This document shows, in pieces, positions 1 through 43,290 of a stretch of DNA of 64,000 nt. This DNA comes from Myxococcota bacterium. Its GTDB lineage: Bacteria > Myxococcota_C > UBA6777. Made by a program: the position numbers and the translations under genes. The notes below the pieces were generated by a model. It saw nothing but the letters and a program-made list of their open reading frames with translations. It did not search any database and was not told the origin of the DNA. Position 1 is the first letter of the stretch, and each line of letters starts with the position of its first letter. The DNA is taken from the NCBI GenBank assembly GCA_023150835.1, contig JAKLKB010000020.1, forward strand, positions 1 to 64,000, given 5' to 3'.

Positions 1-40
1 AGTATGCTTTTCTCGCATATTCGATGCAAATTTTCTGAGA

Positions 41-156
41 TAGGAATTACGCAGTTGAAAAGGGAAACCGTGAAGAATCAACCCGTTGTAGGGGCGGTTC
101 GCGAACCGCCCGCGCCCGAACATGGGCCTTTTTCGTATCGAACTGCGTAAGTCTTA
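41..156. mobile_element. 116-bp MITE/REPIN-like element with 16-bp imperfect terminal inverted repeats and an internal GTAG-type REP palindrome
   Basis: TAGGAATTACGCAGTT (41-56) pairs with AACTGCGTAAGTCTTA (141-156) with 2 mismatches; internal hairpin GTAGGGGCGGTTCGCGAACCGCCC (88-111). Confidence 0.7.
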
Positions 157-201
157 TGAGAATAAACTTCGTTCATTGCATCAAACATTCGGAGAATTTC
201 A

Positions 202-2598
202 ATGACAAAGATTACGCCTTCCGCCTCGCAAGTCGCCCAAAAGTACCAAATCGAGACCCAAAAGCTTTCGCCCGAACAACTCCAAAAGCTTGACACCGAC
301 AAAAGCGGGCAGATCGAAGCAGGGGAGATGGAGGCGGCCCGAAAGCTGACGGATACCAACAACGACGGAATGATCGATCAGCGCGAAAACAAGATTCTTC
401 AAACGCTCCTTGGAAAAGAAGACAGGCCTCAAGACATCGCACCTTTTTTGGAAGCCAATCTCTCACAAAGAGCGGCGACGCTTGCCAAAGACAGCGAGGG
501 CGCAGAGCAAAAAGCCATGAGCCATCTACAACACTCGGAGACCAAGCTCCATACAGCGCGCAGCGAGATGACCAAAGCTCTCAATCAGGCCCCTCTCTCG
601 CTTGAAGGGACCCCCGAACCTTCGAGCGATCTCAAAACCCTTCAAAGCGAGCGAGCCAAGAAACCCTCCGCAGAGGCGATCCAAGTCGAAGAAAAAAAGC
701 TTTCTCAAAACGAAGAGCGACTTCAGACACTTGAGCAAGGCTACAAAGAAGCCGGAGCCACCGTCGAAAAGATCCGTCATTCTCTTGGTAGAAGCCGAGC
801 TTCGGTGGACGATCTGCTCAAAACCAAAGAAAAGCACGTCAAGCATTTCCAAGAAGAAATCGAAAAACTCCCTAGACTTTCTCAAGATTACCCGACATCA
901 GCAGCCAAAACAGAGGGACTCAAAAAGCTCCGCACGCAGATCGAGCAGATCGACAAAGACATCAGCAAGCTCAACAAAAGCAACCCAAAAAACGAGGCAG
1001 AGAGGACGGCCAAAAAAGAAAAACTCGAACATTTAAAGACGGCTGAAAAAGAAGCCACCGCTGCCCGTGACGAGTTGAAAAGCTTTGATCCAGCCTCTGC
1101 AGAACGCGATATCAGGCACGCCACAAAGCGACTCAAGGAGCTCGAAGGCGATATCGCTGAACTGAAGGGGGCCAAGAACACACTCGACGCCTACCCGATA
1201 GCCAAGGCCGAGCTTCAAAAAGAGATCCAAACGAGCAAGGAGATCATTGAGCCGACAAAGGCCTTGGATCGGCAGATCGCCTACGCCCAAGCACTCGAAG
1301 GCCCAAAGCAAAACCTTCTCGCCGCAGAAACGGCTGTAAAAGACGCGAAAGGTAACGTCGGCCAAGTCAAACAAGAACGCCAAACGCTCCAGACACTCTT
1401 GTTGGAAAGCCAATCGAAGGAGTTCAATGCGATCCGACACCAAGAGGCCGAAGGCATGAAGGCTCTTGAAAAGGCCGAAGCCGCCCAGACAAACTTTGAG
1501 AGTCCAGCCGTCCAAGGGCAGATCAAAACTCTTATGACGGCCAAGCGTGTTGATTCGCTTGTCGATCAAGGCCATCTGAAAGCCAAAGACGTGAATTGGG
1601 ATGTTCTTGATCGCGATCTCAAGGTGTCCCAAAAGGCAGTGGATCGAGCTTCTTCAGAGATGGAAGAAGCCGCCAACGGAGTGATCCAAAAGCTCGAAGA
1701 TCCGGCCTTCCAAGCCGCCCTTCAAAAGATGCCCGAAGACAAACGCGACGACATCATGGGCCGAATGCTTCTTTCGATCTCCAAAACCCAAGCGGGACAA
1801 GCGTACTTCGACAAAAACGTCGCCCCAGCCCTCGAAGGCGATCCAAAAGCCCCGCCGCTGTGGAGAAATGCTTACGATGGACTCAAAAACGGACAAAAGA
1901 GCACCCTCAACCTCCTCGAAGCCTCGGGTGCGATGCTTGCTTCACGCGAAGTCGGAAAAGCCTCCAAGCTCCTTGATAGCGGGATGTCACGAGCCTTGGG
2001 AATCAAGCCTGATCAACTTGGTGTTGTTGAAGAAGCTGCCTCTCTTTACAACAAAGGCAACGAAACAGCAGCGAAAGAGCTTTTGAAAAGATCTGATCTT
2101 GGGCACCTCGGTTCGAACCTGACAAAGATTGCCGGAACCTTTACTGTCTTGACGGGCCTCGTTGCAGTCGCGGATCTTGTGCAAAATCCGAATCTCAAAA
2201 ACATTGCTTCGACGGGCAAGTCGGCACTCGAAGTCACTTCGTTGGCTGGAAAACTTGTTGAAGAAAGCACACGTTTTGGTCGGTTTGCAAAGATCGCAGG
2301 AAAAGCAGCACCACCCGTCGATATGGTTTTGGGAGCGGTCGGTTTGTTCGGCGAAAAAGGGGCGATTCATCGTGGAGACATCGGGGGTACGATCGGAAAC
2401 AGTCTTACGATGGCTGGAGGAACCGTCGCAGCAGCGGGTTTGGCCTTGTCAGCCACAGGCGTCGGCTCGGTTGGCGGCGTCCCCATCGCTGCGATCGGAG
2501 CGATCATCTCCGGTGTTGGCGGCCTCGTCGATTGGATCTGGGGCGATTCGAGTACCACCAAATGGCTCAAGGAAAATGCCCCCGAGTACGTTCGCTGA
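202..2598 (+). CDS. EF-hand-containing coiled-coil protein with a Gly/Ala-rich hydrophobic C-terminus; function unknown, possible pore-forming effector
   Basis: 798-aa ORF with RBS GGAG upstream; EF-loop-like motifs DTDKSGQIEAGE and DTNNDGMIDQRE; long E/K-rich heptad region; C-terminal MAGGTVAAAGLALSATGVGSVGGVPIAAIGAIISGVGGLV. Confidence 0.75.
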   Translation: MTKITPSASQVAQKYQIETQKLSPEQLQKLDTDKSGQIEAGEMEAARKLTDTNNDGMIDQRENKILQTLLGKEDRPQDIAPFLEANLSQRAATLAKDSEGAEQKAMSHLQHSETKLHTARSEMTKALNQAPLSLEGTPEPSSDLKTLQSERAKKPSAEAIQVEEKKLSQNEERLQTLEQGYKEAGATVEKIRHSLGRSRASVDDLLKTKEKHVKHFQEEIEKLPRLSQDYPTSAAKTEGLKKLRTQIEQIDKDISKLNKSNPKNEAERTAKKEKLEHLKTAEKEATAARDELKSFDPASAERDIRHATKRLKELEGDIAELKGAKNTLDAYPIAKAELQKEIQTSKEIIEPTKALDRQIAYAQALEGPKQNLLAAETAVKDAKGNVGQVKQERQTLQTLLLESQSKEFNAIRHQEAEGMKALEKAEAAQTNFESPAVQGQIKTLMTAKRVDSLVDQGHLKAKDVNWDVLDRDLKVSQKAVDRASSEMEEAANGVIQKLEDPAFQAALQKMPEDKRDDIMGRMLLSISKTQAGQAYFDKNVAPALEGDPKAPPLWRNAYDGLKNGQKSTLNLLEASGAMLASREVGKASKLLDSGMSRALGIKPDQLGVVEEAASLYNKGNETAAKELLKRSDLGHLGSNLTKIAGTFTVLTGLVAVADLVQNPNLKNIASTGKSALEVTSLAGKLVEESTRFGRFAKIAGKAAPPVDMVLGAVGLFGEKGAIHRGDIGGTIGNSLTMAGGTVAAAGLALSATGVGSVGGVPIAAIGAIISGVGGLVDWIWGDSSTTKWLKENAPEYVR

Positions 2599-31282: not shown

Positions 31283-31713
31283 AGATAGGGCTAGGGTGTA
31301 GCGCAAGCAGCGCAGGTTGTCAAGAGCAAAGATCAGCCGCTGCAAGACTGAGCAAGGATTCATTGTTTTTGAAAGAGTGGGCGGAGCGGATCAAGCTAGA
31401 CGGATGGGGAGAGAAGAGAAGAAGGGCAAGGAGAACAGAGCAAGCGGAGCAAAAACCAGTCTTGACTTTCTGCGGGAGTCTTGGTAAGAGCGCTTGCGTT
31501 TACGGGCTTGGATGTTTTTTGCAAAAGAGACGGATCGCGCAAGCGCATCGGTTTCAGGGTGCGGAGCATCAAGGGAAGCCGAAAGAGTCCATGAAGAGAA
31601 GCGAATGTTCGACGGGCGAAAGATCGCCTGCCTTTTGGAAGCTCTGAAACCACGATCCGTTGGGGTGGATGGGCCAGAGCGATAGACAACACCAGCGATT
31701 GAGGAGAGTGCAG

Positions 31714-32994
31714 ATGGCACGCAAAGGTATTCGTGAATACGACGCCAAGCGGATGTTGGCCACAGCCCTGACCGGTTACGATGGTCGGGTTGCCTTGGTG
31801 GGTCCCGGTGAAGATCTCAGAAAGAAAGCGGAAGAGTACCCTTGGTTGAAGACCGAGAAGCTGGTGGCGAAACCGGATCAACTTTTCGGAAAGCGCGGAA
31901 AGAACGGTCTGATCTGTTTGAACAAAGGTCTCGAAGAAACAGCGGCTTGGATCAACGAGCGCATGAACAAAGAAGTGACGCTGTTGAGCGGCGTGAAGGG
32001 CGTGTTGACGCACTTTATCGTGGAAGTGTTCACTCCGTTTGACGCGGATACACGCGAATATTACTTGTCTCTCGATCTGGATGTGAACGGCGATATCCTT
32101 CGCTTGTCCAATTCGGGCGGCATCGATGTGGAAGAGTACATGGGCGACGAGAACAAATTCGTCGAAGTGATGCTCAACGGTGACAAAGCCTTTGATCCCC
32201 AAGATGTCGATGCAGCGGTGAAAAAGCTGTTTCCTGCAAATCACCACGCTTCCGTGCATCGCTTTATCAAAGAAACCTACAGCCACTTTGTGGCGGGTGG
32301 TTACACGCTGTTGGAGATCAACCCCTTTGTGGTGTTGGGCGATGGTCGTGCGCAACCGCTCGATATGGTCGCGAAAGTGGACGACACCGCAGCGTTCGAG
32401 ACCCGCAAGATGTGGGGCGACAATCTGGAGTTTCCTGCTGCGTTCGGTGAACACCTGACGCCCGCCGAAGAATTCGTGCGCGAGTTGGACTCCAAGACAG
32501 GCGCATCGTTGAAACTGCGTATCCTGAACCCGAAAGGCCGTGTGTGGAACATGGTTGCGGGTGGTGGTGCATCGGTGATCTATGCGGACACCGTGTGCGA
32601 CTTGGGCTTTGCCAACGAGCTTGCGATGTATGGCGAATACTCGGGCAACCCCGACACCAACAACACCTACCTATACGCCAAGACGGTTCTTGAGCAGATG
32701 ACCGCAGAGAAAGATCCCCAAGGACGGCCCAAGTTCCTGCTTTTGGGCGGTGGTATCGCGAACTTTACGGACGTGGCCAAGACGTTTACGGGCATCATCA
32801 TGGCGATGCAAGAGTTGGCAGAAAAGATGAAAGAGGTCGATGTGCGCGTGTTTGTGCGTCGTGCAGGTCCCAACTACAAGGAAGGTCTCATCAAATTGAA
32901 GGCCGCCGGCCAGCGTTTGGGGATCCCCATCGAAGTGCATGGCCCTGAAACACACATGACTCAGATCGTGGCTGATGCGCTGTTGCGCAAATAA
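31714..32994 (+). CDS. aclB: ATP-citrate lyase, ATP-grasp/citrate-binding subunit
   Basis: MARKGIREYDAK, LVAKPDQLFGKRGKNGL, LEINP, SLKLRILNPKGRVWNMVAGGGASVIYAD, YGEYSG, GGGIANFTDVAKTF, VRRAGPNY. Confidence 0.95.
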   Translation: MARKGIREYDAKRMLATALTGYDGRVALVGPGEDLRKKAEEYPWLKTEKLVAKPDQLFGKRGKNGLICLNKGLEETAAWINERMNKEVTLLSGVKGVLTHFIVEVFTPFDADTREYYLSLDLDVNGDILRLSNSGGIDVEEYMGDENKFVEVMLNGDKAFDPQDVDAAVKKLFPANHHASVHRFIKETYSHFVAGGYTLLEINPFVVLGDGRAQPLDMVAKVDDTAAFETRKMWGDNLEFPAAFGEHLTPAEEFVRELDSKTGASLKLRILNPKGRVWNMVAGGGASVIYADTVCDLGFANELAMYGEYSGNPDTNNTYLYAKTVLEQMTAEKDPQGRPKFLLLGGGIANFTDVAKTFTGIIMAMQELAEKMKEVDVRVFVRRAGPNYKEGLIKLKAAGQRLGIPIEVHGPETHMTQIVADALLRK

Positions 32995-33056
32995 TGGCTG
33001 CGCTGCTTCGAAACGACACAGCGAATCGCAAATCGCGCACATAAGGGAGAAAACAG

Positions 33057-34901
33057 ATGAGCCGACCCAGTTACCAGCTCTTCGATAAAAATACCACCGC
33101 GCTGATCTACGGGATGCAGACCGCAGCGGTGCAACGTATGCTTGACTTTGACTTTGCTTGCCGTCGCGCCAAGCCCTCCGTTTCCGCGTTGATCAACCCG
33201 GGTAGCGAAGGCTACGAGAAGATCTTTTGGGGCACAAAAGAGATCCTTCTACCCGTGTTTCCTGATATCGCCTCGGCTGCCAAAGCCTGCCCTGAATCCG
33301 ATGTGTTGATCAACTTCGCCTCGTATCGTTCGGCCTATCCGACGACGCTCGAAGCGATGGCGATCCCCCAACTCCGCACGCTCGTGATCATCGCCGAAGG
33401 CGTTCCCGAGCGCCGCGCCCGTCATCTGCGCGGTCTCGCCCGTGAGAAGGGTATCAACATCATCGGTCCCGCGACCGTTGGTGGGATCAAAGCAGGTGTG
33501 TTCCGTATCGCCAACACGGGCGGAACCATCGAAAACATCGTCAGCTCCAAACTGCATCGCCCGGGTTCTGTGGGCTTTGTGTCCAAATCAGGCGGGATGT
33601 CCAACGAGTCCTACAACGTGATCGCCCAATGCACCGACGGCGTCAACGAAGGGATCGCGATCGGTGGCGATGCGTTCCCCTGTTCGACGTTGCTTGATCA
33701 CCTGCTGCGTTTCCAAGACAACCCTGACATCAAGATGATGGTGTGTCTCGGTGAAGTGGGCGGCGAAGAAGAATACCGTATCGCCGAGGCCATCGCGAGC
33801 GGACGCATCACCAAACCCGTTGTGGCATGGGTGACAGGAACCTCGCTCGAACACCTGCCCCAAGGCGTACAGTTCGGACACGCCGGCGCAAAAGCCGATG
33901 TCAAGCGCGAAACCGCACCCGCCAAAAACGAGGCACTGCGCAAAGCCGGTGCGATCGTTCCCGAGTCTTTCAACGACTACGGCAAAGCGATCAAAGACAC
34001 CTTCGACAAACTCGTTGCCGAAGGCAAACACACGCCGATCGCAGATGTCGAACCACAAAACGTCCCGATGGACTTCAAAAGCGCTGTGGCGCTCAAGATG
34101 GTTCGCCGTCCCACCAACTTCATCTGCACGATCACCGATGATGCGGGTGATGAACTCAACTACGCAGGCCACAAGATCAGCAAGGTGATCAGCGAAAACT
34201 ACAGCATCGGCGATGTCTTGTCGCTGTTGTGGTTCCGCGAGCGCCTTCCCAAGTGGGCCACCGACTTCTTGGAGATGGTGATCAAGTTGACTGCGGATCA
34301 CGGCCCCGCAGTATCGGGCGCACACAACGCGATCGTCACGGCTCGCGCAGGACGCGATCTGATGAGCGCGGTGGCGTCGGGTATCTTGACCATCGGTCCG
34401 CGTTTTGGGGGTGCTGTCGCAGGTGCCGCAGTGATGTTCAAAGATGCGTACGACCGCAAGCTCAATGCCGTCCAATTCATCGATGAAAAGAAAAAGCAAA
34501 ACGTCAACGTTCAAGGGATCGGCCACCGCATCAAGTCGCTGCGCAATCCCGACATGCGCGTTGTCTTGCTCAAAAAATATGCAGACGAACATTTCCCCCA
34601 ACATCCCCTGCTTGACTTTGCTCTCGAAGTCGAACAAGTGACGACACAGAAAAAAGATACCTTGATCCTCAACGTGGACGGTGCCATCGGCGTGTTGTGC
34701 GTCGATATGATGTACGCATGCGGCTTCTCCGAGCGTCGCGTGCAAGACGTTGTCGATGCAGGCGCACTCAACGGCTTGTTCTTGCTTGGCCGTACCATCG
34801 GCATGGTCGGTCACTTTATGGATCAACACCGCCTCAAAGCGCCGCTCTATCGCCATCCTTGGGACGATATCCTCTACGACTTGCCCGCAGACGCAGAATA
34901 A
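33057..34901 (+). CDS. aclA: ATP-citrate lyase, CoA-binding/phospho-His/citryl-CoA lyase subunit
   Basis: QRMLDFDF, IIGPATVGGI, SKSGGMSNE, QFGHAGA (phospho-His), ADHGPAVSGAHN, GIGHRIKS, LILNVDG, LYRHPWDDI. Confidence 0.96.
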   Translation: MSRPSYQLFDKNTTALIYGMQTAAVQRMLDFDFACRRAKPSVSALINPGSEGYEKIFWGTKEILLPVFPDIASAAKACPESDVLINFASYRSAYPTTLEAMAIPQLRTLVIIAEGVPERRARHLRGLAREKGINIIGPATVGGIKAGVFRIANTGGTIENIVSSKLHRPGSVGFVSKSGGMSNESYNVIAQCTDGVNEGIAIGGDAFPCSTLLDHLLRFQDNPDIKMMVCLGEVGGEEEYRIAEAIASGRITKPVVAWVTGTSLEHLPQGVQFGHAGAKADVKRETAPAKNEALRKAGAIVPESFNDYGKAIKDTFDKLVAEGKHTPIADVEPQNVPMDFKSAVALKMVRRPTNFICTITDDAGDELNYAGHKISKVISENYSIGDVLSLLWFRERLPKWATDFLEMVIKLTADHGPAVSGAHNAIVTARAGRDLMSAVASGILTIGPRFGGAVAGAAVMFKDAYDRKLNAVQFIDEKKKQNVNVQGIGHRIKSLRNPDMRVVLLKKYADEHFPQHPLLDFALEVEQVTTQKKDTLILNVDGAIGVLCVDMMYACGFSERRVQDVVDAGALNGLFLLGRTIGMVGHFMDQHRLKAPLYRHPWDDILYDLPADAE

Positions 34902-34920
34902 TCGTCGTTATCTTCTTTTA

Positions 34921-34956
34921 CAGCGCGCTCCGCTCGGGGCGCGCTGTTCTGCTTTT
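34921..34956 (+). terminator. Probable intrinsic terminator after aclA
   Basis: Stem CAGCGCGCTCC/GGGGCGCGCTG followed by TTCTGCTTTT. Confidence 0.6.
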
Positions 34957-35151
34957 CTCCCACAACATCGCTGCTTTTCGCACCCTTCGGATGTACACCA
35001 CCACGATACTTTTGCGAAAAGAGCGATCTTCAAAAAAATCAACAAGCGACACCCTAGAACAACATTCTATCCAACACACGATAGCGCCCGTCGCATCGAG
35101 TCAACGAGCCTCGATCGCTGACGACGGCCTGACAGTACAGAGGAGACGAGT

Positions 35152-36891
35152 ATGTCCCAAATCGATGTCTTGTATTTTCCCGGTGATGATCGTGCAGAAG
35201 ATGCCAGCGAAGTCGCCAAAGACGTTGCCAACGCTGCACTTGCGCGTGCCAACGAGATCGTGGGTTCGAGCCACAAGTTCAACTGGATCTCTGAGAACGA
35301 AGATCCCCGACTGACCGTGGGTTTGCGCCTGTGGTTGCGGTTGAAAAACCAATTTGACCTGCCCGTTCTCAACGAAAACGACGCACGCGATAAAGAAGTC
35401 CTCAACTTCATCTTGAAGTCCGATATCACGGACATTCAGGCCAAGTACCCCAAAGTTCAGGCGTCTGATCTGGCCTTCATCCGCGACGCGGCGCAATCGT
35501 TGTTGGACATGAACGTGTTGGTGCCTTCGGATGGCGTACTCGAAGCGTTGAATCGCGTGGGCTACTCCTACAAAGGCGCGACCGGCACGCTCTCTGGCAA
35601 AGGCACCCCCGCAAGCATCAACGTGTTTATTCGCCAAAAACTCGAATCCGACGCTTGTGTGCGCGATTTCAAAAACGTGGCCCCTCGCAAACACAAATCC
35701 GTGGATGTCGATATGGCCGTATTTGTGGGCTGTGAAGGCGTGACCTCCGAGTCTGAACACCTCGTCGGAACGGGCTACACCGACGCCAAGATCATCACCA
35801 AAAAATCGGCAGCGGTGATCCAAAAAGCCTTTGAATACGCCAAAGCCAAAGGCATCGACAAGGTCTATGTTGCGGAAAAAGGCAACATCTTGAAAGAGTC
35901 GGACAACGCCTTCATCGATCTGGCAAAAGCCGCAGAAGCCGAAACAGGCGTGAAGATGGAATACATCATCTTCGACAACTTCTTGCAACGCATCACCAAA
36001 AACCCCGATTGGTTCAAGGTGGTCGTCACTTCTCGCTTCAATGGCGAAGAGTTCTTGGTTCCCCTTGCCGTCGCCATGTTCAACGAAGTCGAACGCGAAG
36101 ATCTCGGAAAAGATGTGGGCGTCTTCTCCCGCTACGTCGGCAAAAACATCGACTACACCAAAACCAAGATCGACACCCGCTGCTATCGCCAAAACAACGA
36201 GTGTTTCTACATCGGCGAAGACAAACGAACCGAAACCGAATCCATCAACTTCCGCCGCATCACCCGCAAGATGTCCGAAAATATCATCCGCTACTCGCTC
36301 GATGATACGCTTGTGCGCGGTGCAAAACGCTTGTTCATCCTGTATTCACCGTACCTCGCAGGCGACAAGCTCTTCCTCCAAGTGGGCCGAGAGATCGCCC
36401 GCGAAGAAAAGTACAAATCCATCGATGTGGTGTTTATGACCATCGGCGACTACTGCTGGTACACCGTCCATCGCCCCGAATCGGTCGAAGGCGTGGTGGG
36501 AACCAACTTGACGATGGACTTTTTGACCGACGCAGAAGCCTCGAAGATCGGTGGGATCGGGATGATGCCCAGCTTCAATTACACCCTTGAGACGGGCATT
36601 ATGGTGTCCGAACCCGGCCACGGGACTGCTCCCGACCTCCAGCCCAACCAGATCAACCCCGGTGCTTCGATCTGGGCGATGGCTGCGTTGCTTGAGCGTA
36701 TGAGCGACGACCTCAGCGGTCGGATCACTCCCGACCAAAAGAAAACACTCGCCAAAGCCGCAGAACTCGTCTACAAAGCCACCACGCAATTCTACTCCGC
36801 AGGCCAAAACTTGACGGGTGATCTCGGCGGAACCGGCACCACCACAGGCGTCGGCGATGGCATCAAAACCATCCTCCATTCCCTCCAATAG
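35152..36891 (+). CDS. icd: Isocitrate dehydrogenase-family protein with an internally duplicated small domain; probably NAD+-dependent
   Basis: FPGDD, KGATGT...SINVFIR...ACVR, KGNILK, IFDNFL, RQNNECFY, NLTMDFLTD, EPGHGTAPDL, INP, LTGDLGG. Confidence 0.8.
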   Translation: MSQIDVLYFPGDDRAEDASEVAKDVANAALARANEIVGSSHKFNWISENEDPRLTVGLRLWLRLKNQFDLPVLNENDARDKEVLNFILKSDITDIQAKYPKVQASDLAFIRDAAQSLLDMNVLVPSDGVLEALNRVGYSYKGATGTLSGKGTPASINVFIRQKLESDACVRDFKNVAPRKHKSVDVDMAVFVGCEGVTSESEHLVGTGYTDAKIITKKSAAVIQKAFEYAKAKGIDKVYVAEKGNILKESDNAFIDLAKAAEAETGVKMEYIIFDNFLQRITKNPDWFKVVVTSRFNGEEFLVPLAVAMFNEVEREDLGKDVGVFSRYVGKNIDYTKTKIDTRCYRQNNECFYIGEDKRTETESINFRRITRKMSENIIRYSLDDTLVRGAKRLFILYSPYLAGDKLFLQVGREIAREEKYKSIDVVFMTIGDYCWYTVHRPESVEGVVGTNLTMDFLTDAEASKIGGIGMMPSFNYTLETGIMVSEPGHGTAPDLQPNQINPGASIWAMAALLERMSDDLSGRITPDQKKTLAKAAELVYKATTQFYSAGQNLTGDLGGTGTTTGVGDGIKTILHSLQ

Positions 36892-37005
36892 TACGAGATC
36901 CGAGTGATCTGTGATCGAAGGGGAGCGCGGAGACGCCCGATTGTAGGGGCAGACCCCTGTGTCTGCCCCCACGTCCTTACGATCACACAACGGGCGGATC
37001 TCGTA
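36892..37005. mobile_element. 114-bp MITE/REP-like element (copy B) filling the entire gap between two convergent stop codons
   Basis: Perfect 11-bp TIR TACGAGATCCG/CGGATCTCGTA; internal hairpin GTAGGGGCAGAC-CCCTGT-GTCTGCCCC. Confidence 0.8.
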
Positions 37006-38865
37006 TCACAACAAGATCGAAAAACTCAACACGATGCTTTGATCAAAAGACCACTTGTCTAAGCCCGCAGCAACGGGCGTTGCAGGGTCGCGTCGAACAC
37101 GTAGCCGATAGAACAACGACGCATAATGCGACAAACGCAGAGTGATCGTCGTGCGCCATGTGATATCGAAATCATCGAAGGCTGTAAACGGCGCAAGCAT
37201 ATCGAATTCGGTGGTGAAGGTCAGAAATCGGGTGATCTGTCCTGTCGCAACGACGGCCAATTCGATGCCTTCGCGGTGAGACCACGTTTTGCGAAAAAAA
37301 CGCAAATGGATGTGTTGTTCTTGGTTCGCGGTGTTGGGGCAGCGCGAAGTGTTCCAAGGAGCCGAAGGATCGCGCAGATCGGGATCACGACAACGCGCAG
37401 AATAGTCACTCGTCGTCGTCGATCCGCCCTGAAACACGGCTCGCGCCACTTCTTGGCGAAACCCAACCCCCACCAAGATCCGCAGATCCAACCAAGAATA
37501 CTGCAAAGCTTGAAGATTCACCCCAAGCCCTTGCTTGATCAACAAGGGATCCCAAAAGTCACTCAAATCGATCCGATCCGCTGCGCTTCCCTTGGCGTCT
37601 GTCAAAAGAGAACAAGCTGCCTCTGTTTCGCATCGAAAGATCGATGCTCCGATCGAACGTTCTAGATCAGAGATGTAGTACGTCCCCGGAAAGATATTGC
37701 TCTCCAACCCCACCCGCGCATAAGGCCCCAAAAAGCTCAAGATCCGATAGATATAGATCGCTTCTAGCTCCACACGATCCGCGCTTTTTCGCAGATCGAT
37801 CTGATCGATCCGCGAAAAGTTGGGGATCGTAAAACCCAGCTCGACGTTTAAAAAGCTCCGAAAGAAGTGACGCTCCGTGTTGTACGTTGCACGGCCTGTA
37901 AAAAACGTCGTCAAGCTAAAGCGATGCCCGGGCGTTGTCGCAGGTACATTTTCCACATTGTTCCACAAAAAGTTTCCCGACAACTGCAAACTCCACGTCC
38001 ACGCCCCTTGTCGCTCCAGACCCAACTGGCGCAACAACAACACCCCTCCCCCTCGCACACGACCATCGTTGCGGTCTTTGATTAGCCGAAAAAAAGTCAC
38101 TTCTCCTTCGTTTACTTGTACGGTCAGAAAGTCTGTCCGCGCCAGATAAGTATCCCCCACTTGAACGATCATATAAAGTCCGGGTGGCAACAACCACGGT
38201 CGCACTTTCTCGCCGATCCGCTCGTCTGCGCCGATCCCCGTCCCGATACCACGCCGCGATTCAAGGTGGATCAAGTCGTACGTTCCGCGAAACTGCACCA
38301 ACGATTCATCCTGCACCAAGATCACCAACGCCGCCCAAAGCGCCCGAATGATCGTCAGTTGCGAGGCATACACGCGAACATGATAACGCGGCAACACCGT
38401 ACCTGCACGTGAGCCGATCTGCACCGTGTAGCGACCGGGATAAACGAAGGCTTTCTTGCCTGTCGGGTTGGTTGCGACTTGGCGACCTTTGGTATCATAA
38501 ACAATGTAAGAGGTTTGCGAGACATTTTGCTGCTGGATAATACGCGGAACAAAGATCGCGCCCAAACGCGGAGGGATCGGCACAGGGTCGCTACCGATTT
38601 GACGGCGCAACTCGTCCATCTCGTCTGATTTCACGAGAGAACGGATATCTTCGCGCAATCCGGCCATCCCTTTCTCTAGCTGTTGGGGTGTCAAGACCAA
38701 GACGTTCTGAGGCGTGGCTTCGCGATCGGAAAAGATCCCGCCCCCCGGGATCGCTTGGGGAGGCGCTGCAATACTCTCTCGCAGACCTCCCCACACGACG
38801 CCGCTCACGATCAAACACACCCACCAACACCGTGCAAAAGCATCCATCCAAGCACTCCAATCCAT
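37006..38865 (-). CDS. Exported protein with a probable C-terminal beta-barrel (outer-membrane protein, function unknown)
   Basis: Hydrophobic N-terminal segment; amphipathic beta-strand pattern in the C-terminal half; the 5' part of the listed ORF lies inside a repeat element, so the start was re-called. Confidence 0.65.
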   Translation of the reverse strand: MDWSAWMDAFARCWWVCLIVSGVVWGGLRESIAAPPQAIPGGGIFSDREATPQNVLVLTPQQLEKGMAGLREDIRSLVKSDEMDELRRQIGSDPVPIPPRLGAIFVPRIIQQQNVSQTSYIVYDTKGRQVATNPTGKKAFVYPGRYTVQIGSRAGTVLPRYHVRVYASQLTIIRALWAALVILVQDESLVQFRGTYDLIHLESRRGIGTGIGADERIGEKVRPWLLPPGLYMIVQVGDTYLARTDFLTVQVNEGEVTFFRLIKDRNDGRVRGGGVLLLRQLGLERQGAWTWSLQLSGNFLWNNVENVPATTPGHRFSLTTFFTGRATYNTERHFFRSFLNVELGFTIPNFSRIDQIDLRKSADRVELEAIYIYRILSFLGPYARVGLESNIFPGTYYISDLERSIGASIFRCETEAACSLLTDAKGSAADRIDLSDFWDPLLIKQGLGVNLQALQYSWLDLRILVGVGFRQEVARAVFQGGSTTTSDYSARCRDPDLRDPSAPWNTSRCPNTANQEQHIHLRFFRKTWSHREGIELAVVATGQITRFLTFTTEFDMLAPFTAFDDFDITWRTTITLRLSHYASLFYRLRVRRDPATPVAAGLDKWSFDQSIVLSFSILL

Positions 38866-38924
38866 CCGCAATTCCGTCGTTTGGCCAACAAAGGCTCGGA
38901 CACCCAAGATCCGACCACAGCTTG

Positions 38925-39037
38925 TACGAAATCCGCAGTGCGCGTGATCGCCAAGAGGTCGGGGCAGACAGGTGTGGCTGCCCAATAATCGGGCGTTTAC
39001 GTACTCTCCTTTGTGGATACATCACTCGGATATCGTG
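38925..39037. mobile_element. 113-bp MITE/REP-like element (copy E, inverted)
   Basis: Ends TACGAAATCCG and CGGATATCGTG; internal hairpin GGGCAGAC-AGGTGT-GGCTGCCC; abuts the mlaD stop codon. Confidence 0.75.
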
Positions 39038-40276
39038 TTATTCCTTGACAATCAGACCGCCTTTTTTGTTTTCATCCCGCGAGATCACAAGGCGAATCAA
39101 AGAACGAAAGATCCGAGAACGCTTGACTTGGCCCAAGATCGCTTTGAAGTCCTCAAACGCTGTTGGGTCGTTGATCAATGCCCCCAAAGAGCCTTTCCCT
39201 GTGCGGATATCCCGTAAGATCGTGCGGATATCGTCGGTGGATCGGTTGAGATTGGTGAGGATCTGGCTGGTTTCTGGATCAAACAACAGCTTGTTTAACA
39301 ACGTTCCAGACTTGCGCGGCGCTGAAAGCAAAACTTTGAGCGCTCGCGTGATATCTGCCGCTCCCTTCGCGGTGTCTTCGAGCGAAGTCAGTAACACGCG
39401 GCCTTCCTTGGACAACAACATCCGATGCAGCATCGTCCCGGGACGCTGAACACCTCGCAAAAAGCGAGAGACCTGCGCCCCCGTATCTGCGAGTCCTTGG
39501 ATGGTTCGGCGCACCTCCACAACAGAACCTTGGACGCTGCGGGAAAGCTCTTTGGAAAACAACAGATCGTGCGCAAGGCCCGGACCTGTGCGCACCTTGC
39601 TCATCATCCCATCCACCGAAGCAACGATGCCTTTGATATTTGCCGTAAGCTGTTGGTCTTTGTATTGACCAAGGATATCGTTGATCAAAGACACGGTCTT
39701 TCCCGCATCTTTGGCGATATCCTTGACCTGCACAAGGATCTCCGAAAGCCCTTTGGGTGTTTCACCTTGGACATCTCCTTCTTCTTTCAGGTTCGATCCC
39801 TTCGTACCGATCGAGATATCCACCAAGGAGTCCCCTAACAGCCCTTTTCCTTTGACGTTCGCAACAGAATCTGCCCGAATCTTGGACAAGATCGAAGAGT
39901 CGATCTTCATCCGAACGCGGATACTACGAGGGTTAACCTTCGGTGTGCTTTGAAGCTCTTTGGGGATGGCCTGTCCAGCATCTTTCAACAACGCGATCAT
40001 CTCTTGGTTTCGCTTGGTTTCGCGCTCAAGATCTTTTTGCTTTTCTTCTGTAGACATCAGCCAGATCTTATCGACTACGCCGATCTTGAATCCCGAAAGC
40101 GTCACCATCGATCCCACGCTCAAGCCTGCGACGTTCTCAAACGACGAGTACACCGAGACTTGCTTGTCAAAGGCTCGGTTGGCGGTCCCCACAATAAAAA
40201 TGATCACCCCGCCGATCAATAGCGCAGCGATCAAGAAGACACCCACGCGGATCTCTATGGTTCTTTCCGAAGCCAT
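39038..40276 (-). CDS. mlaD: MCE/MlaD family lipid-transport periplasmic protein
   Basis: EIRVGVF + TM; FENVAGLSVGSMVTLSGFKIGVV; ADSVANVKGKGLLGDSLVDI; helical tail with GKGSLGALIND. Confidence 0.92.
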   Translation of the reverse strand: MASERTIEIRVGVFLIAALLIGGVIIFIVGTANRAFDKQVSVYSSFENVAGLSVGSMVTLSGFKIGVVDKIWLMSTEEKQKDLERETKRNQEMIALLKDAGQAIPKELQSTPKVNPRSIRVRMKIDSSILSKIRADSVANVKGKGLLGDSLVDISIGTKGSNLKEEGDVQGETPKGLSEILVQVKDIAKDAGKTVSLINDILGQYKDQQLTANIKGIVASVDGMMSKVRTGPGLAHDLLFSKELSRSVQGSVVEVRRTIQGLADTGAQVSRFLRGVQRPGTMLHRMLLSKEGRVLLTSLEDTAKGAADITRALKVLLSAPRKSGTLLNKLLFDPETSQILTNLNRSTDDIRTILRDIRTGKGSLGALINDPTAFEDFKAILGQVKRSRIFRSLIRLVISRDENKKGGLIVKE

Positions 40277-40282
40277 CTCGGA

Positions 40283-41671
40283 TTACTCCTTGTCTTTTTG
40301 GGCATCGCCCTTGCGTTGAGAACGCTCTTTGTTTTCGGAGCCGATGAAAAAATGCACCGCCGAAGCCCATCCTTGTAGGTTCTTAAGCATGATCACCAGA
40401 TCCGCGTACGCACTTGCATCGTAAAGAAGCGCTCCGATCGATCCGCGACCGTTCCGTAATTTTCGGATGATCCGACGCATCTCGTTGCTTGCGATGCGGA
40501 TGTTCGCAAGCATCTTGGCGGCTTCGGGATCAAACAGCATACGATTCACAAAAGTGCCTTGCCGCTGCGGTGCTTTGAGCAACAGATGGACTTCTTGTAA
40601 CACCAACGCCGCCAACGCCAACAGTTCTTGTGAGAGCGCCAACAAACGGCGACCATCCGACGAAAGCAGCAGGTGTTGAATCAATGTCCCGCGTTCTTGC
40701 GCACCTTTCAAGATCTGACTGACTCCGCCACCGAGATCCGCCAGATGACGGATCGCAAAACGCACATCGTTTAATAAGACCCGTGCATCGCGTGCCAAGC
40801 GACGAGAGGTCAGCAGATCATGAACCAGACCCGAACCACGATTGCCTTGTGCAAGCATCTGATCCGTATGTTCCAAGATGCCCTTGAGATGGCGCCAAAG
40901 CACAGGATCACCCAACTCAGCGAGAAAATAATTGATCAATTTCAGACTGCGCCGAAGCTGATCCGCGATCCGATTGATATCACCGATCACTTCGACCACT
41001 TGGGCATCTGAGGCCCCTTCCAGCTCTGCATCACGCGGTAGATCCATCGATGGCACCACACCACGCAAGAGGCTCGTCGAGATATCGACCACCGCACGCC
41101 CCAACATCCCCTTGCCTCGGATGGTGGCCACCGAATCTTTGCCTAGCCACGAAAAAAAAGAACGCGACACACGCACGCGCACACGCAAAGAACGCGCAAT
41201 CATCGGCACTTCCCAACGTACATCCGTCCCTTTGGACGTCTTCACCCGCGCCTTACGCAAAAACTTGGGCAAAGCTTGCTCCAAAGCAGCCTCGATCTTG
41301 CCCTCACGTTCGGCAAGATCAACGATATCTTTGAACTTCTTTTGGATGCCTTCGAGATGCAGTACACGCACACGCCGCAACATCAAGGGCCGCAGATGCT
41401 CTCGTCGTTGCGCTTGTTGCGCAAGATCTCTTTCTTGCTCATCAGGCCGAAGTAGCCGAACACTTTCGACCACCCCCACATTCATCCCCGCGATGGTCGC
41501 AAAAGCGCCTTCGTAGATCCCCTCCACAGAGCGGTAGTTTGCGCTGATGTAGCCGCGTTCCTCGAATAACTTTGTTGCCGAACCGATCAAATAGACTACC
41601 CATGCCGTACACAACAACGAAGCGAGACAAAACAAAAACACCCGGATGTACACGGATATCGATAGCTGCAT
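40283..41671 (-). CDS. mlaD: Second, divergent MCE/MlaD family protein
   Basis: N-terminal TM; VEGIYEGAFATIAGMNVGVV; DSVATIRGKGMLG; GRGSIGALLYD. Confidence 0.8.
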   Translation of the reverse strand: MQLSISVYIRVFLFCLASLLCTAWVVYLIGSATKLFEERGYISANYRSVEGIYEGAFATIAGMNVGVVESVRLLRPDEQERDLAQQAQRREHLRPLMLRRVRVLHLEGIQKKFKDIVDLAEREGKIEAALEQALPKFLRKARVKTSKGTDVRWEVPMIARSLRVRVRVSRSFFSWLGKDSVATIRGKGMLGRAVVDISTSLLRGVVPSMDLPRDAELEGASDAQVVEVIGDINRIADQLRRSLKLINYFLAELGDPVLWRHLKGILEHTDQMLAQGNRGSGLVHDLLTSRRLARDARVLLNDVRFAIRHLADLGGGVSQILKGAQERGTLIQHLLLSSDGRRLLALSQELLALAALVLQEVHLLLKAPQRQGTFVNRMLFDPEAAKMLANIRIASNEMRRIIRKLRNGRGSIGALLYDASAYADLVIMLKNLQGWASAVHFFIGSENKERSQRKGDAQKDKE

Positions 41672-41682
41672 CTTGCCCTCGC

Positions 41683-42489
41683 TTATTCTTCTTCGTCTGG
41701 AATTCCACGAAGAAAGTTTTGTAAGATCTCATCCTCCGCGTTGCGCATCTCTTGAACTGTACCGATGCGATGGATACGCCGACCAGAAAGAAACGCGATC
41801 CTATCGGAAAAATAAAAGGCCCCTCCCATATCGTGCGTGATCACCATCGCGGTCACGCCCCGTTCTTGTTGTACGGTACGGATCAGCTTGTTGACACGAA
41901 CCGTACTTTCGGGATCGAGACCCGTCGTGGGTTCATCGTACAAAATAACCTCGGGCTGCATGACGATCGAACGCGCCAGACCGACCAGTTTGCGCATCCC
42001 CCCCGATAATTCGGAAGGATAACGCGCAGCAAACGAGCGCGGAAGATTGATCAGATCGAGTTGCGCTTCCACGCGCTCGCGGATCGCCGTCTCTTCCAAG
42101 CGTAGATGTTCGCGCAATGGATAGGCGATATTCTCGAAGACTGTAAGCGAATCGAAAAGAGCCGCCAACTGAAACACCATCGAGATCCGCTTGCGCACTT
42201 CGATGAGCTGAAACTCCGACAGATGGGTCAGATCCACCCCCCTATACAAGATCTGCCCCGTATCTGCGGTCAGCAAACCGATCAAGATCTTGATCATCAC
42301 GCTCTTGCCTTGCCCCGATCCCCCAAGGATGGTCAGCGTCTCCCCCGACAAGACATCGAAATGCAGATCTTCGTAGATGCGCTTGCTGCCGAAAGCTTTT
42401 TGCACGTGAACATAACGGATCAGCGGTTCTCCCGCAGGAACGGGCGTTTCATCAAATTGAACTGCGAAGCCTGCACACATACATCCCAC
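41683..42489 (-). CDS. mlaF: MlaF-type ABC transporter ATPase
   Basis: GGSGQGKS, VFQLAALFDSLTVFENIA, LSGGMRK, LYDEPTTGLDP, ITHD. Confidence 0.93.
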   Translation of the reverse strand: MGCMCAGFAVQFDETPVPAGEPLIRYVHVQKAFGSKRIYEDLHFDVLSGETLTILGGSGQGKSVMIKILIGLLTADTGQILYRGVDLTHLSEFQLIEVRKRISMVFQLAALFDSLTVFENIAYPLREHLRLEETAIRERVEAQLDLINLPRSFAARYPSELSGGMRKLVGLARSIVMQPEVILYDEPTTGLDPESTVRVNKLIRTVQQERGVTAMVITHDMGGAFYFSDRIAFLSGRRIHRIGTVQEMRNAEDEILQNFLRGIPDEEE

Positions 42490-42495
42490 CCAGCC

Positions 42496-43290
42496 TTAGC
42501 GAAAAACCACCAACAAGATCTGCGTCAAAAAGAAATCGCTGATCAACACACTGATGCTAATCAATTCAACGGTTCCCGTTGTGGAAAGCCCCACGCCTTG
42601 GGTGCCGCCTTGGGTGTTGAAACCTTGGTAACAACCGATCACAGCCACCAAAAAGCCGAATACAACAGCCTTAATCAAGCCCGTAAAAAAGTCACCTAGA
42701 TCCACAACGTCCAACGACGATTGATAGAAAAACAAGGGGGGGATATTAAACTGACTGGACGAAAGTCCTTGGGCAGCCAAAAACCCCGTAATATCGGCAA
42801 AAACAGTCAGCATCGGCATGATAATCAAACTGGCCGCAAGACGGGGTACGATCAGCTTTCGGATCGGGTCCGCACCCAACGCACGGATCGCGTCGATCTG
42901 CTCCCCGACCTTCATCGAACCCAACTCCGCTGCCATCCCACTACCGATCCGCCCTCCCACGATCAAAGCCGTCAACACAGGAGCCAACTCACGAAACAAA
43001 GAAACCGCAACCACCGGCCCCACATAATCTTGCGCACCAAACTTCCCAAGGCCGTAGGCAAATTGAAGCGCCATCACGCCACCGATCGCCGCAGCCGTCA
43101 ACAAACCGATCCGCAAAGAGCGAACTCCCAAAAGCTCGATCTGAGCGATCACTGCGCGTAGATCATACGGCGGCAAGACCATGCGCCACGCCGCCAAGTA
43201 CGACAACCGCGTGATCGAACCCATAAACCAGATGTATTCGATGGCACGCGCACCGACCGTTTGAAACAAAGAAACAAACCAAGCGCTCAT
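42496..43290 (-). CDS. mlaE: MlaE-type ABC transporter permease
   Basis: RELAPVLTALIVGGRIGSGMAAELGSMKVGEQIDAIRALG, PRL, GGTQGVG. Confidence 0.95.
   Translation of the reverse strand: MSAWFVSLFQTVGARAIEYIWFMGSITRLSYLAAWRMVLPPYDLRAVIAQIELLGVRSLRIGLLTAAAIGGVMALQFAYGLGKFGAQDYVGPVVAVSLFRELAPVLTALIVGGRIGSGMAAELGSMKVGEQIDAIRALGADPIRKLIVPRLAASLIIMPMLTVFADITGFLAAQGLSSSQFNIPPLFFYQSSLDVVDLGDFFTGLIKAVVFGFLVAVIGCYQGFNTQGGTQGVGLSTTGTVELISISVLISDFFLTQILLVVFR

Follow-up and report, generated by a model that had tools for sequence, protein, structure and literature searches.

Isocitrate dehydrogenases (IDHs) are divided into type I, type II and monomeric classes, and the monomeric enzymes form a separate clade with <10% identity to the others, according to the classifying study (PMC4360740). 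The type I NAD-IDH/homoisocitrate dehydrogenase group, which includes the enzymes of Xanthomonas (6ltf/6m3s) and Methylococcus (6lky), human IDH3 alpha and T. thermophilus 1x0l, consists of homodimers or tetramers of ~335-aa chains in which the catalytic Lys and Asp are supplied by the partner subunit. Monomeric (type III) NADP/NAD-IDHs are larger, at ~740 aa, and fall into PF03971; that of Azotobacter vinelandii was reportedly described by Yasutake et al. in 2002. Their layout is exemplified by the M. smegmatis enzyme (4zda), a single chain with a cofactor domain and a doubled, pseudo-symmetric second domain that gives both halves of the active site. Their catalytic residues run in the order S132, N135, R139, R145, K255, D350, Y420, R547, D548, as given in a paper that also supplies the E. 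coli numbering of the catalytic set (PMC13660168).

The window analyzed here, a 64,000-nt stretch of Myxococcota contig JAKLKB010000020.1, encodes a 579-aa IDH whose sequence is of type I and whose architecture is that of the monomeric class, and which so sits outside the existing scheme. The gene (P0001, 35152..36891, + strand) was defined by its open reading frame and translation, and a Shine-Dalgarno motif, GAGGAG (35140..35145, +), can be read from the sequence 6 nt ahead of the ATG at 35152. Its product is likely to be a working, probably NAD+-dependent IDH in which a composite active site of the homodimer type is built within one chain; we infer its residue geometry, wiring, activity, cofactor and monomeric state.

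Profile searches place the protein in the PF00180 superfamily (E 1.9e-36; score 126.5 bits, cut-off 27), with two matching stretches that both exceed the cut-off in a genome search. The closest sequences are type I NAD-IDHs, led by 6ltf (phmmer E 7.8e-23), and metagenomic type I NAD-IDHs share ~31-35% identity with it. NCBIfam yields 17 matches, none of which comes near its curated cut-off. The scores for NF006529 (143 vs 510 bits) and TIGR00175 (132 vs 432.4 bits) leave the protein outside the type I NAD-IDH equivalogs, and the best match, to the isopropylmalate/isohomocitrate subfamily TIGR02088 (154 bits), is likewise below cut-off. The word "isocitrate" draws no support from any equivalog assignment, which was counted against the single-chain explanation, and pathway reconstruction based on curated cut-offs would pass this IDH by. 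Twenty-eight full-length relatives (61-89% identity) define its family. Database copies are mostly nameless; the four named ones comprise two "hypothetical protein" entries, one "isocitrate dehydrogenase (NAD+)" and one "isocitrate/isopropylmalate family dehydrogenase, partial". A search of the ESM Atlas returned generic PF00180 clusters and no model of this protein, and a literature search, with most subscription journals outside its reach, found no described PF00180 enzyme with a double small domain.

The chain comprises one cofactor-binding large domain, two small-domain units and an N-terminal helical insert. The first part of the large domain (residues 1-46; 35152..35289, +), drawn from the family alignment and structural alignments, is followed by a helical insert of ~75 residues (~47-125; 35290..35526, +) that is specific to this family and is marked by a profile gap and by helices in the model. 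The large domain resumes (35527..35652, +) with the substrate helix S155-x-N157-x-x-x-R161, aligned to canonical columns S80, N82 and R86. The first small-domain unit, U1 (residues 168-309; 35653..36078, +), was delimited by its PF00180 stretch, the column table, residue counts and the secondary structure of the model. Next come the start of an inter-unit linker hairpin (strand 311-317; 36079..36102, +; pLDDT 91-96) and the second unit, U2 (residues ~318-463; 36103..36540, +), delimited by its own PF00180 stretch and by a second profile match that starts at hmm 91, equivalent to residue 318. The C-terminal part of the large domain (36541..36888, +) carries the cofactor loop H490-G-T-A-P-D495-L496 and N502, invariant in 28/28 relatives.

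An earlier note, made from the letters alone, had proposed one large and two small domains and had forecast two partial PF00180 hits. Both hits are found, overlapping, at 35629-36045 (profile 90-243) and 36166-36858 (profile 122-346), and the AlphaFold model contains one canonical subunit plus ~250 extra residues. In the common pattern each chain has a single small domain and a partner subunit completes the site; this protein departs from it in having two units. The small domain is duplicated beyond chance. A profile built from single-unit NAD-IDHs finds two matches in each of the 28 full-length relatives (the first at ~hmm 34-55 to 227-263, the second at ~hmm 88-106 to 330-335), and the modeled elements follow the same order in U1 and U2 (strand-strand-helix-strand-helix-strand-helix-strand-helix). 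Compared directly by BLASTP, the two copies show no significant similarity and align out of register (E 0.4), and profile methods were used for that reason; hhalign aligns the U1 and U2 profiles in register over 90 columns (E 7.6e-5, probability 62%, 14% identity). The direct sequence signal in these two comparisons is weak and was counted against the single-chain reading. The repeat proposed in the earlier note stands, with its start placed probably one strand too late: the R129-like strand with R327 would belong to it. R327 is Arg in 27/28 relatives, and its equivalence to the R129-like strand comes from a by-eye alignment that hmmalign did not reproduce.

The full PF00180 catalytic set (three Arg, Tyr, Lys and three Asp, with Ser and Asn for IDH) is present across the two units. 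Fourteen positions are invariant in 28/28 relatives: S155, N157, R161, R171, K243, N245, D275, R346, Y353, D456, D460, H490, D495 and L496. The first four precede U1 or sit at its start (U1, as 168-309, includes R171), U1 retains K243, N245 and D275, and U2 retains R346, Y353, D456 and D460. The motifs on which the split was first proposed lie exactly where they had been placed when recomputed from the translation: SINVFIR (residue 155, nt 35614), KGNILK (243, 35878), FDNFL (274, 35971), RQNNECFY (346, 36187), DFLTD (456, 36517) and HGTAPDL (490, 36619), with VGCEG, GEEFL and YSPYL at residues 192-196, 298-302 and 398-402.

The proposed complementary losses recur in 28/28 relatives and in two further families described below (family B, 9/9; family C, 2/2). 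Within U1, the Arg/Tyr positions are occupied by V192 or F191 and by T198, and the second Asp position by P304. These counterparts are non-catalytic throughout (F191 in 28/28, V192 in 27/28, residue 198 V/T/I/A/Q, P304 in 28/28). Copy 1 has accordingly lost RENxE..Y, as claimed, but its DxxxD motif has lost the second Asp and not the first: residue 300 is D in 24/28 relatives and E in 4/28. Copy 2 keeps its Arg-Tyr and Asp-Asp motifs and lacks KGN, again as claimed; its Lys position is S399 in 26/28 relatives, and its Asp position, 432, varies among A/K/D/P/R/G (G432 here). The conservation of R327 (27/28) and of D/E300 (28/28) despite their assignment to the dead half-site was counted against the single-chain explanation.

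The AlphaFold model (pLDDT 89.6, pTM 0.88) embeds the whole type I subunit fold. Its superposition on 6lky_A covers 327/339 residues at 2.0 A (Z 31.8), and the top matches among type I structures reach Z ~30-32 with 317-330 residues aligned at 2.0-2.7 A. Alignments to dimer-type chains extend to 345 residues at most. With the monomeric IDH 4zda_A, in contrast, 475 residues align collinearly (Z 20.9, 3.4 A, 12% identity), spanning model residues 4..579 and chain residues 6..675. The model thus appears to share the monomeric layout, in which one cofactor domain and a doubled second domain follow the same order along the chain; the doubled domain would supply both active-site halves, and the catalytic residues follow the order reported for monomeric IDH. 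Together with conservation, the collinear superposition would place K243 and D275 near Y353, D456 and D460. The sequences are another matter, as the earlier note had anticipated: the protein has no PF03971 match at E <= 1, nor has its own genome, and the profile is absent from all six genomes of the lineage in a search whose control, Corynebacterium glutamicum, was detected. Unlike monomeric IDHs, the 579-aa protein has two units still recognizable as PF00180 and a cofactor motif with the Asp-Leu of the NAD type. Its R153-type Arg lies on the canonical strand (R346), whereas that of monomeric IDH adjoins the metal Asp (R547).

The proposed explanation begins with an ancestral type I NAD-IDH gene in which the segment for the small (dimerization) domain would have been duplicated. 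U1 and U2 would pack together as the small domains of two subunits do in the dimer, and a single cofactor-binding large domain would remain, so that of the two sites once present just one could work. The live site would draw on three sources: the segment preceding U1 for S155, N157, R161 and R171; U2, in the role of the enzyme's own subunit, for R346, Y353, D456 and D460; and U1, in the role of the other, for K243, N245 and D275; Lys and Asp would then lie in the same chain as the rest. Residues of the orphan second site would have decayed. The simplest wiring would insert an extra whole small domain (~178-340) into the hairpin between the R129-type and R153-type strands. Two other wirings were rejected by reasoning. 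An arm swap, with the first hairpin of U1 in the live site, would have the losses the other way round, with U1 keeping the R153/Y160 positions and U2 losing them; the reverse is seen in the 28 relatives, in family B (9) and in family C (2). A wiring with U2 wholly in the own-subunit role and U1 wholly in the other fails on R171, which lies 10 residues past R161 and cannot reach the far domain. A single active site per 64 kDa brings no obvious advantage, and this too was counted against the explanation.

Residues at the substrate and cofactor positions are consistent with an NAD-linked isocitrate enzyme. The S-x-N at the gamma-carboxylate positions fits the canonical IDH set (S in 95% at that column). 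The H490..L496 loop, equivalent to the HG(S/T)APD loop of type I enzymes, aligns with the HGSAPDIAG loop of the NAD-IDH structures 6ltf/6m3s. The NAD+ preference read earlier from HGTAPD gains support from D495 and L496, invariant at the positions occupied by D and I in the single-unit NAD-IDH set (94% each). Other features set the protein apart from type I enzymes, including the extra small-domain unit, the missed equivalog cut-offs and two changes in the cofactor domain. The N-terminal insertion, claimed at ~70 aa, falls at residues ~47-125 between profile positions ~45 and 52, and is helical (58-68, 81-89, 92-98 and 104-120, pLDDT 92-98). An N-terminal strand at residues 3-9 precedes it, the first match of our single-unit profile begins after it (hmm 52, residue 126), and canonical chains superpose on the model from residues 1-5 onward. 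The usual GDGIGPE loop, 93-98% conserved across the single-unit NAD-IDH set, is replaced by PGDDRAEDAS, with P10, G11, D12, D13, R14, D17, A18 and S19 invariant. Either the replaced loop or the 75-residue insert could alter cofactor binding or regulation, a point likewise counted against the explanation.

Two more unnamed metagenomic families of ~500 aa contain a double unit with the same residue split. Family B (P0149, P0225 and seven more) spans 478-500 aa and family C (P0224, P0212 and seven more) 499-527 aa; the residue table covers nine members of family B and only 2/9 of family C. Both have two PF00180 stretches with unit boundaries as in the 579-aa family, but unlike that family they lack the N-terminal insert and keep a canonical GDGIGPE loop. 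A family B model aligns with 4zda_A over 470/500 residues (Z 24.2, 3.7 A). Family C has T/E and I at the isocitrate-binding Ser/Asn positions and probably acts on another substrate, because the Ser/Asn signature is missing. In a tree of single units, the two units of family B are mutual closest relatives (100/98), which suggests that this family had its own duplication, and U2 of the 579-aa family (family A) groups with a single-unit IDH (95/86). The tree favors separate duplications within PF00180, although the approximately unbiased (AU) test cannot reject grouping the first units of families A, B and C together in one clade (p 0.259, 121 columns).

The gene also keeps a fixed genomic place behind aclBA, a sign that citrate metabolism is unusual in this lineage. 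Upstream lie aclB (31660..32994, +; PF16114 2.3e-78, PF24948 1.3e-57), for the ATP-grasp and citrate-binding subunit of ATP-citrate lyase, and aclA (33057..34901, +; PF00285, PF00549), for its CoA-ligase and citryl-CoA-lyase subunit. The aclA gene is directly upstream of the IDH gene in 6/6 related loci (4/4 in a further count) and aclB is upstream in 5/6, the sixth locus ending before the aclB position. The IDH gene is the sole PF00180 gene in its own genome (93% complete) and in 4/5 other lineage genomes; the genome without one is 64% complete. Searches of the gene's own genome found no citrate synthase beyond the domain in aclA and no 2-oxoglutarate dehydrogenase E1, together with two POR_N oxidoreductases, and no leuB-type gene was found in the lineage genomes. 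The 579-aa protein would be the housekeeping IDH of the lineage, alongside ATP-citrate lyase.

How the architecture arose admits a rather unlikely alternative, namely that the protein belongs to the monomeric (type III, PF03971) lineage, either as a remote member or as an early form that has survived, and that its duplication is the event that produced the 80-kDa enzymes. The shared architecture, collinear over 475 residues (470/500 for family B), and the identical order of catalytic residues would be expected under such descent, and with an AU p value of 0.259 from 121 columns single ancient origins are hard to exclude. Against this stand the absent PF03971 match and 12% structural-alignment identity; the PF00180 matches of both units and the ~31-35% identity to type I NAD-IDHs; the sister relationship of the family B units (100/98) and the grouping of family A U2 with a single-unit IDH (95/86); and the separation of monomeric IDHs from other types noted in PMC4360740. 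An origin of the 579-aa family independent of the PF03971 enzymes is favored, not proven. The chain might instead be self-sufficient and still form a dimer or larger assembly in the cell through new surfaces such as the N-terminal insert, which we consider somewhat unlikely. AbIDH2, a monomeric-type IDH that forms a homodimer in solution (PMC5979607), offers a precedent, and the 75-residue insert is conserved, confidently folded and without an assigned role.

Function raises two further alternatives. It is improbable that the substrate is a different 2-hydroxy acid (homoisocitrate, 3-isopropylmalate or tartrate), or that the enzyme serves mainly a reverse TCA cycle, as reductive carboxylase or oxalosuccinate reductase, in place of an oxidative one. 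The TIGR02088 match and the lack of a leuB-type gene point toward another substrate, but S155 and N157 are invariant at positions conserved in the single-unit IDH set, and family C, with T/E and I, exemplifies what changed specificity looks like. The missing citrate synthase and 2-oxoglutarate dehydrogenase E1 and the two POR_N genes form a reverse-TCA-like set; flux direction, however, is no rival to the architecture, and an IDH can work in either direction. That the protein is an IDH relic, catalytically dead or with a regulatory role only, is scarcely credible: the altered Gly-rich N-terminal loop and the missed NCBIfam cut-offs would suit one, yet all catalytic residues are invariant in 28/28 relatives, the gene is the sole IDH-family gene in five genomes, the aclBA synteny is kept, and the gene occurs on RNA-library contigs.

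If the 579-aa IDH is active as a single chain, it would offer a tractable case of an obligate homodimer with shared sites becoming a self-sufficient monomer whose halves can still be aligned. The route would be internal duplication followed by complementary decay, its repeatability could be tested in three families with the same pattern, and the missing IDH of a group of uncultured bacteria from wastewater and marine settings would have been found. A broader reading, which we put forward tentatively, is that doubling of the small domain monomerized IDH more than once. The 64-kDa family, separately family B and possibly family C would have come out of type I NAD-IDHs, with an origin independent of that of the 80-kDa PF03971 enzymes, and each would have converged on the same wiring and division of residues. 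Their still recognizable halves would represent an early stage of the dimer-to-monomer transition that has been erased in classical monomeric IDHs, and the 64-kDa enzyme would be the sole IDH of its lineage and a partner of ATP-citrate lyase in a TCA cycle that lacks both citrate synthase and 2-oxoglutarate dehydrogenase.

The locus is represented on RNA-library contigs. A sigma-70 promoter scan of 34850-37100 returned 0 sites. The gap between aclA and the IDH gene holds a terminator-like hairpin (34920..34947, +; 12 pairs, 9 of them G-C, and a T-rich tail), and a terminator consensus scan of the region found three sites against 3.2 expected in shuffles, a count that is not significant. Contigs from RNA libraries run across this hairpin. 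Such contigs, in which DNA carry-over is possible, cover the IDH gene in four studies, with parts of the gene lacking contig cover in runs X19 and X20. One 5,456-nt RNA-library contig (depth 215) has computed ends at ~31551 and ~37006, which coincide with the limits of aclB-aclA-idh.

The isocitrate dehydrogenase (IDH) gene is a 579-residue ORF at 35152..36891 on the forward strand, with the ribosome-binding site GAGGAG 6 nt 5' of its ATG. PF00180 is the sole Pfam family matched by the protein (126.5 bits, cut-off 27), and the match comes in two stretches. An earlier note predicted two such partial matches, and the genome search places them at 35629-36045 (profile 90-243) and 36166-36858 (profile 122-346). 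Profile positions from about 122 to 243 are thus present twice. The motif coordinates of that note are all correct when recomputed from the translation, with SINVFIR at residue 155, KGNILK at 243, FDNFL at 274, RQNNECFY at 346, DFLTD at 456, and HGTAPDL at 490. NCBIfam yields 17 matches, all under their curated cut-offs, led by TIGR02088 (154 versus 410 bits) and NF006529 (143 versus 510). A single-unit profile, built on 249 homology-search matches with one unit each (325-350 aa), matches each of the 28 full-length relatives (family A) in two places, one running from about hmm 34-55 to 227-263 and the other from about hmm 88-106 to 330-335. One of the 249, P0031, is a family A fragment, which was kept in the profile and removed from the tree and consensus. 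Direct BLASTP of the first small-domain unit (U1, residues 168-309) against the second (U2, about 318-463) detects no significant similarity (E 0.4), and the two unit profiles are in register along a 90-column alignment (hhalign E 7.6e-5, probability 62%) with 14% identity; the duplication is therefore old.

Catalytic residues were matched to the E. coli IDH numbering of PMC13660168. S155 (S113), N157 (N115), R161 (R119), and R171 (R129), N-terminal to U1, are invariant (28/28), as are K243 (K230'), N245, and D275 (D283') within U1. The R153 position of U1 is occupied by V192 according to hmmalign or by F191 in the printed alignment to 2d1c, the Y160 position (residue 198) by V in 16 relatives, T in eight, I in two, and A and Q in one each, and the D311 position by P304 in all 28. 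Conversely, R346, Y353, D456, and D460 of U2 are invariant (28/28), while its Lys position (S399) holds S in 26 relatives and T and N in one each, and its Asp position (residue 432) holds A in 11, K in 10, D, P, and R in two each, and G in one. The proposal that the two units have undergone complementary losses largely stands: U1 keeps the Lys and Asp without the Arg, Tyr, and second Asp, and U2 does the reverse in 28/28. The first Asp of the DxxSD motif, by contrast, is not lost from U1, where the D307 position is still acidic (D in 24, E in four). H490, D495, L496, and N502 of the cofactor loop are likewise invariant (28/28). In the single-unit set, HG(T/S)AP is followed by D (94%) and I (94%), compared with K344 and Y345 in the E. 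coli NADP enzyme (PMC13660168); D495-L496 therefore indicates the predicted preference for NAD+ that had been read from the HGTAPD motif.

A search of 5.8 billion clustered proteins gives family A 28 full-length members (61-89% identity, 578-586 aa) plus four fragments. The next match, an ordinary 339-aa NAD-IDH, falls to 35% identity and covers 40% of the query. When 1.84 billion representatives were searched exhaustively, P0009 (70% identity) was the only protein past E 1e-30. Source names are absent from most of the 32 database entries; the four named ones, whose MAGs bear the labels Myxococcota, Myxococcales, or Deltaproteobacteria, read "hypothetical protein" (two), "isocitrate dehydrogenase (NAD+)" (one), and "isocitrate/isopropylmalate family dehydrogenase, partial" (one). 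Proteins of roughly 500 aa also came up in the exhaustive search, each with one alignment across both units, and four of them have two PF00180 stretches. Follow-up searches define two families of metagenomic, unnamed proteins, family B (nine proteins, 478-500 aa; P0149, P0225, P0270-P0276) and family C (nine proteins, 499-527 aa; P0224, P0212, P0388-P0394), and the single-unit profile draws unit boundaries common to families A, B, and C. The complementary residue split recurs in 9/9 family B proteins and in both of the family C proteins tabulated, out of nine members. Family C lacks the isocitrate signature, with T/E in place of the Ser and I in place of the Asn; it probably acts on another substrate and may be a single-chain dehydrogenase. 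Single-unit relatives conserve the Gly-rich GDGIGPE loop at 93-98%, and families B and C retain it; family A instead has the family-invariant PGDDRAEDAS (window 35179-35208, residues 10-19).

An AlphaFold2 model built on the 28-sequence alignment (pLDDT 89.6, pTM 0.88) has an identical succession of strands and helices in U1 (185-309) and U2 (341-463), which are joined by a hairpin (311-317, 323-331). The model bears out the expectation of one large and two small domains, containing a full canonical subunit (6lky_A, Z 31.8, 327/339 residues, 2.0 A, model 3..577) plus an extra unit. Among 48,161 representative chains, dimer-type IDH/IPMDH chains align over at most 340 residues, with a maximum of 345 (3flk_A) on re-check of the Foldseek matches, and 4zda_A, the monomeric IDH of M. 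smegmatis, aligns over 475 (Z 20.9, 3.4 A, 12% identity, model 4..579, chain 6..675). In the model, the extra unit therefore takes the position that the doubled domain's second half has in a solved monomeric IDH, and the chain traverses its parts in the same order. A family B model (pLDDT 82.6) aligns to 4zda_A over 470/500 residues (Z 24.2, 3.7 A). The catalytic order of monomeric IDH is S132, N135, R139, R145 / K255, D350 / Y420 / R547, D548 (PMC13660168), and here it likewise runs S155, N157, R161, R171 / K243, D275 / R346, Y353 / D456, D460. The duplicated small domain and divided residues are confirmed, and the reading of a split site completed within a single chain is supported at the level computation allows. 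By prediction, the enzyme is a new structural IDH variant in which a type I scaffold arrives at the known "monomer by domain duplication" solution. No PF00180 enzyme with a doubled small domain is described in the full-text literature covered, a scope that includes PMC5979607, PMC13660168, PMC4360740, and PMC11976288 and leaves most subscription journals outside.

A tandem duplication would give the chain the order N-U1-U2-C. R171 comes 10 residues after R161, so its strand would have to remain beside the large domain, as would the D456/D460 helix, since this helix runs into the C-terminal large-domain part. If the chain crossed to the far domain after the second strand of U1, Arg and Tyr should be kept in U1 and lost from U2; the opposite is found in 28/28 and in families B and C. 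The pattern of losses instead fits a crossing in the hairpin loop, which would be equivalent to inserting a complete small domain (about 178-340) into a canonical subunit, between its R129-type and R153-type strands. R327 (kept in 27/28) and D/E300 (28/28) fit the hairpin-loop crossing poorly, as both would be placed in the dead half-site.

How often the duplication arose was addressed with a tree of 75 single units and 121 columns, drawn from 8 of 28 family A, nine family B, two family C, and 37 single-unit representatives (<50% mutual identity). With bootstrap not fully settled, the tree groups the two units of B together (100/98), U2 of A with a single-unit IDH (95/86), and U1 of A with U1 of C (98/90). 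Separate duplications give the best tree; a single duplication is also compatible with the AU test, where joining all first units in one clade is not significantly worse (delta lnL 18.5, p 0.259). Independence from the known monomeric (type III) IDH family, PF03971, is argued by three lines of evidence: neither the protein nor its own genome matches PF03971, as predicted; both halves keep 31-35% identity to type I enzymes; and monomeric IDHs are reported to share under 10% identity with other IDHs (PMC4360740).

The phylum-rank group of this genome comprises six species genomes, five of which carry the gene (69-100% identity); the sixth is 64% complete. In each of the five (G000, from the window's organism, and G002-G005; 6.6-10.8 Mb), both PF00180 matches fall in this single gene and no other PF00180 gene is found, so the search detects neither canonical icd nor leuB. 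The missing leuB-type 3-isopropylmalate dehydrogenase would fit leucine auxotrophy in these five genomes. PF03971 occurs in none of the six. The ATP-citrate lyase genes aclB-aclA (window 31660-34901) precede the IDH gene: aclA is directly 5' in 4/4 and 6/6 loci in two surveys, and aclB precedes aclA in 5/6, the sixth locus being cut off. In G000 (93% complete, 7.6 Mb, labelled myxobacterial), the aclA domain is the sole citrate-synthase-type match, 2-oxoglutarate dehydrogenase E1 was not found, and two POR_N oxidoreductases and two aconitases are encoded. This gene complement suggests a TCA cycle that runs in reverse or in both directions, and in such a cycle the IDH might also carboxylate.

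RNA-library contigs from four studies cover the IDH gene. Run X1 contains one 5,456-nt contig (depth 215) that shows no differences from the window. By record coordinates it extends from about 31551 to 37006, starting about 109 nt before aclB and finishing 115 nt past the IDH stop. These are the limits expected of a single aclB-aclA-idh transcription unit, although contigs cannot prove a single transcript and DNA carry-over is possible. A 3,003-nt contig in run X9, from a related strain (39 differences), spans the aclA-IDH junction. A strong G+C-rich hairpin of 12 pairs with a T-rich tail lies between aclA and the IDH gene (34920-34947); since RNA-library contigs read across it, the hairpin may act as an attenuator and not as a complete terminator.

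Elsewhere in the window, a 437-aa ORF within 26744-29103 matches Inhibitor_I10, a family of microviridin-type protease inhibitors (E 3e-36). None of the stretches passes individually, suggesting that the match is made up of many short repeats. The next gene encodes an MvdD-type ATP-grasp ligase, and the region may be a multi-core microviridin-like RiPP cluster. Convergent with the IDH gene, a 659-aa ORF on the reverse strand (37006-38985) has no Pfam match and, among related loci, is seen only in the same-genus genome. The same strand carries an Mla-like lipid-transport cluster at 39038-43290, made up of two MlaD-domain proteins, an ABC ATPase, and an MlaE permease.
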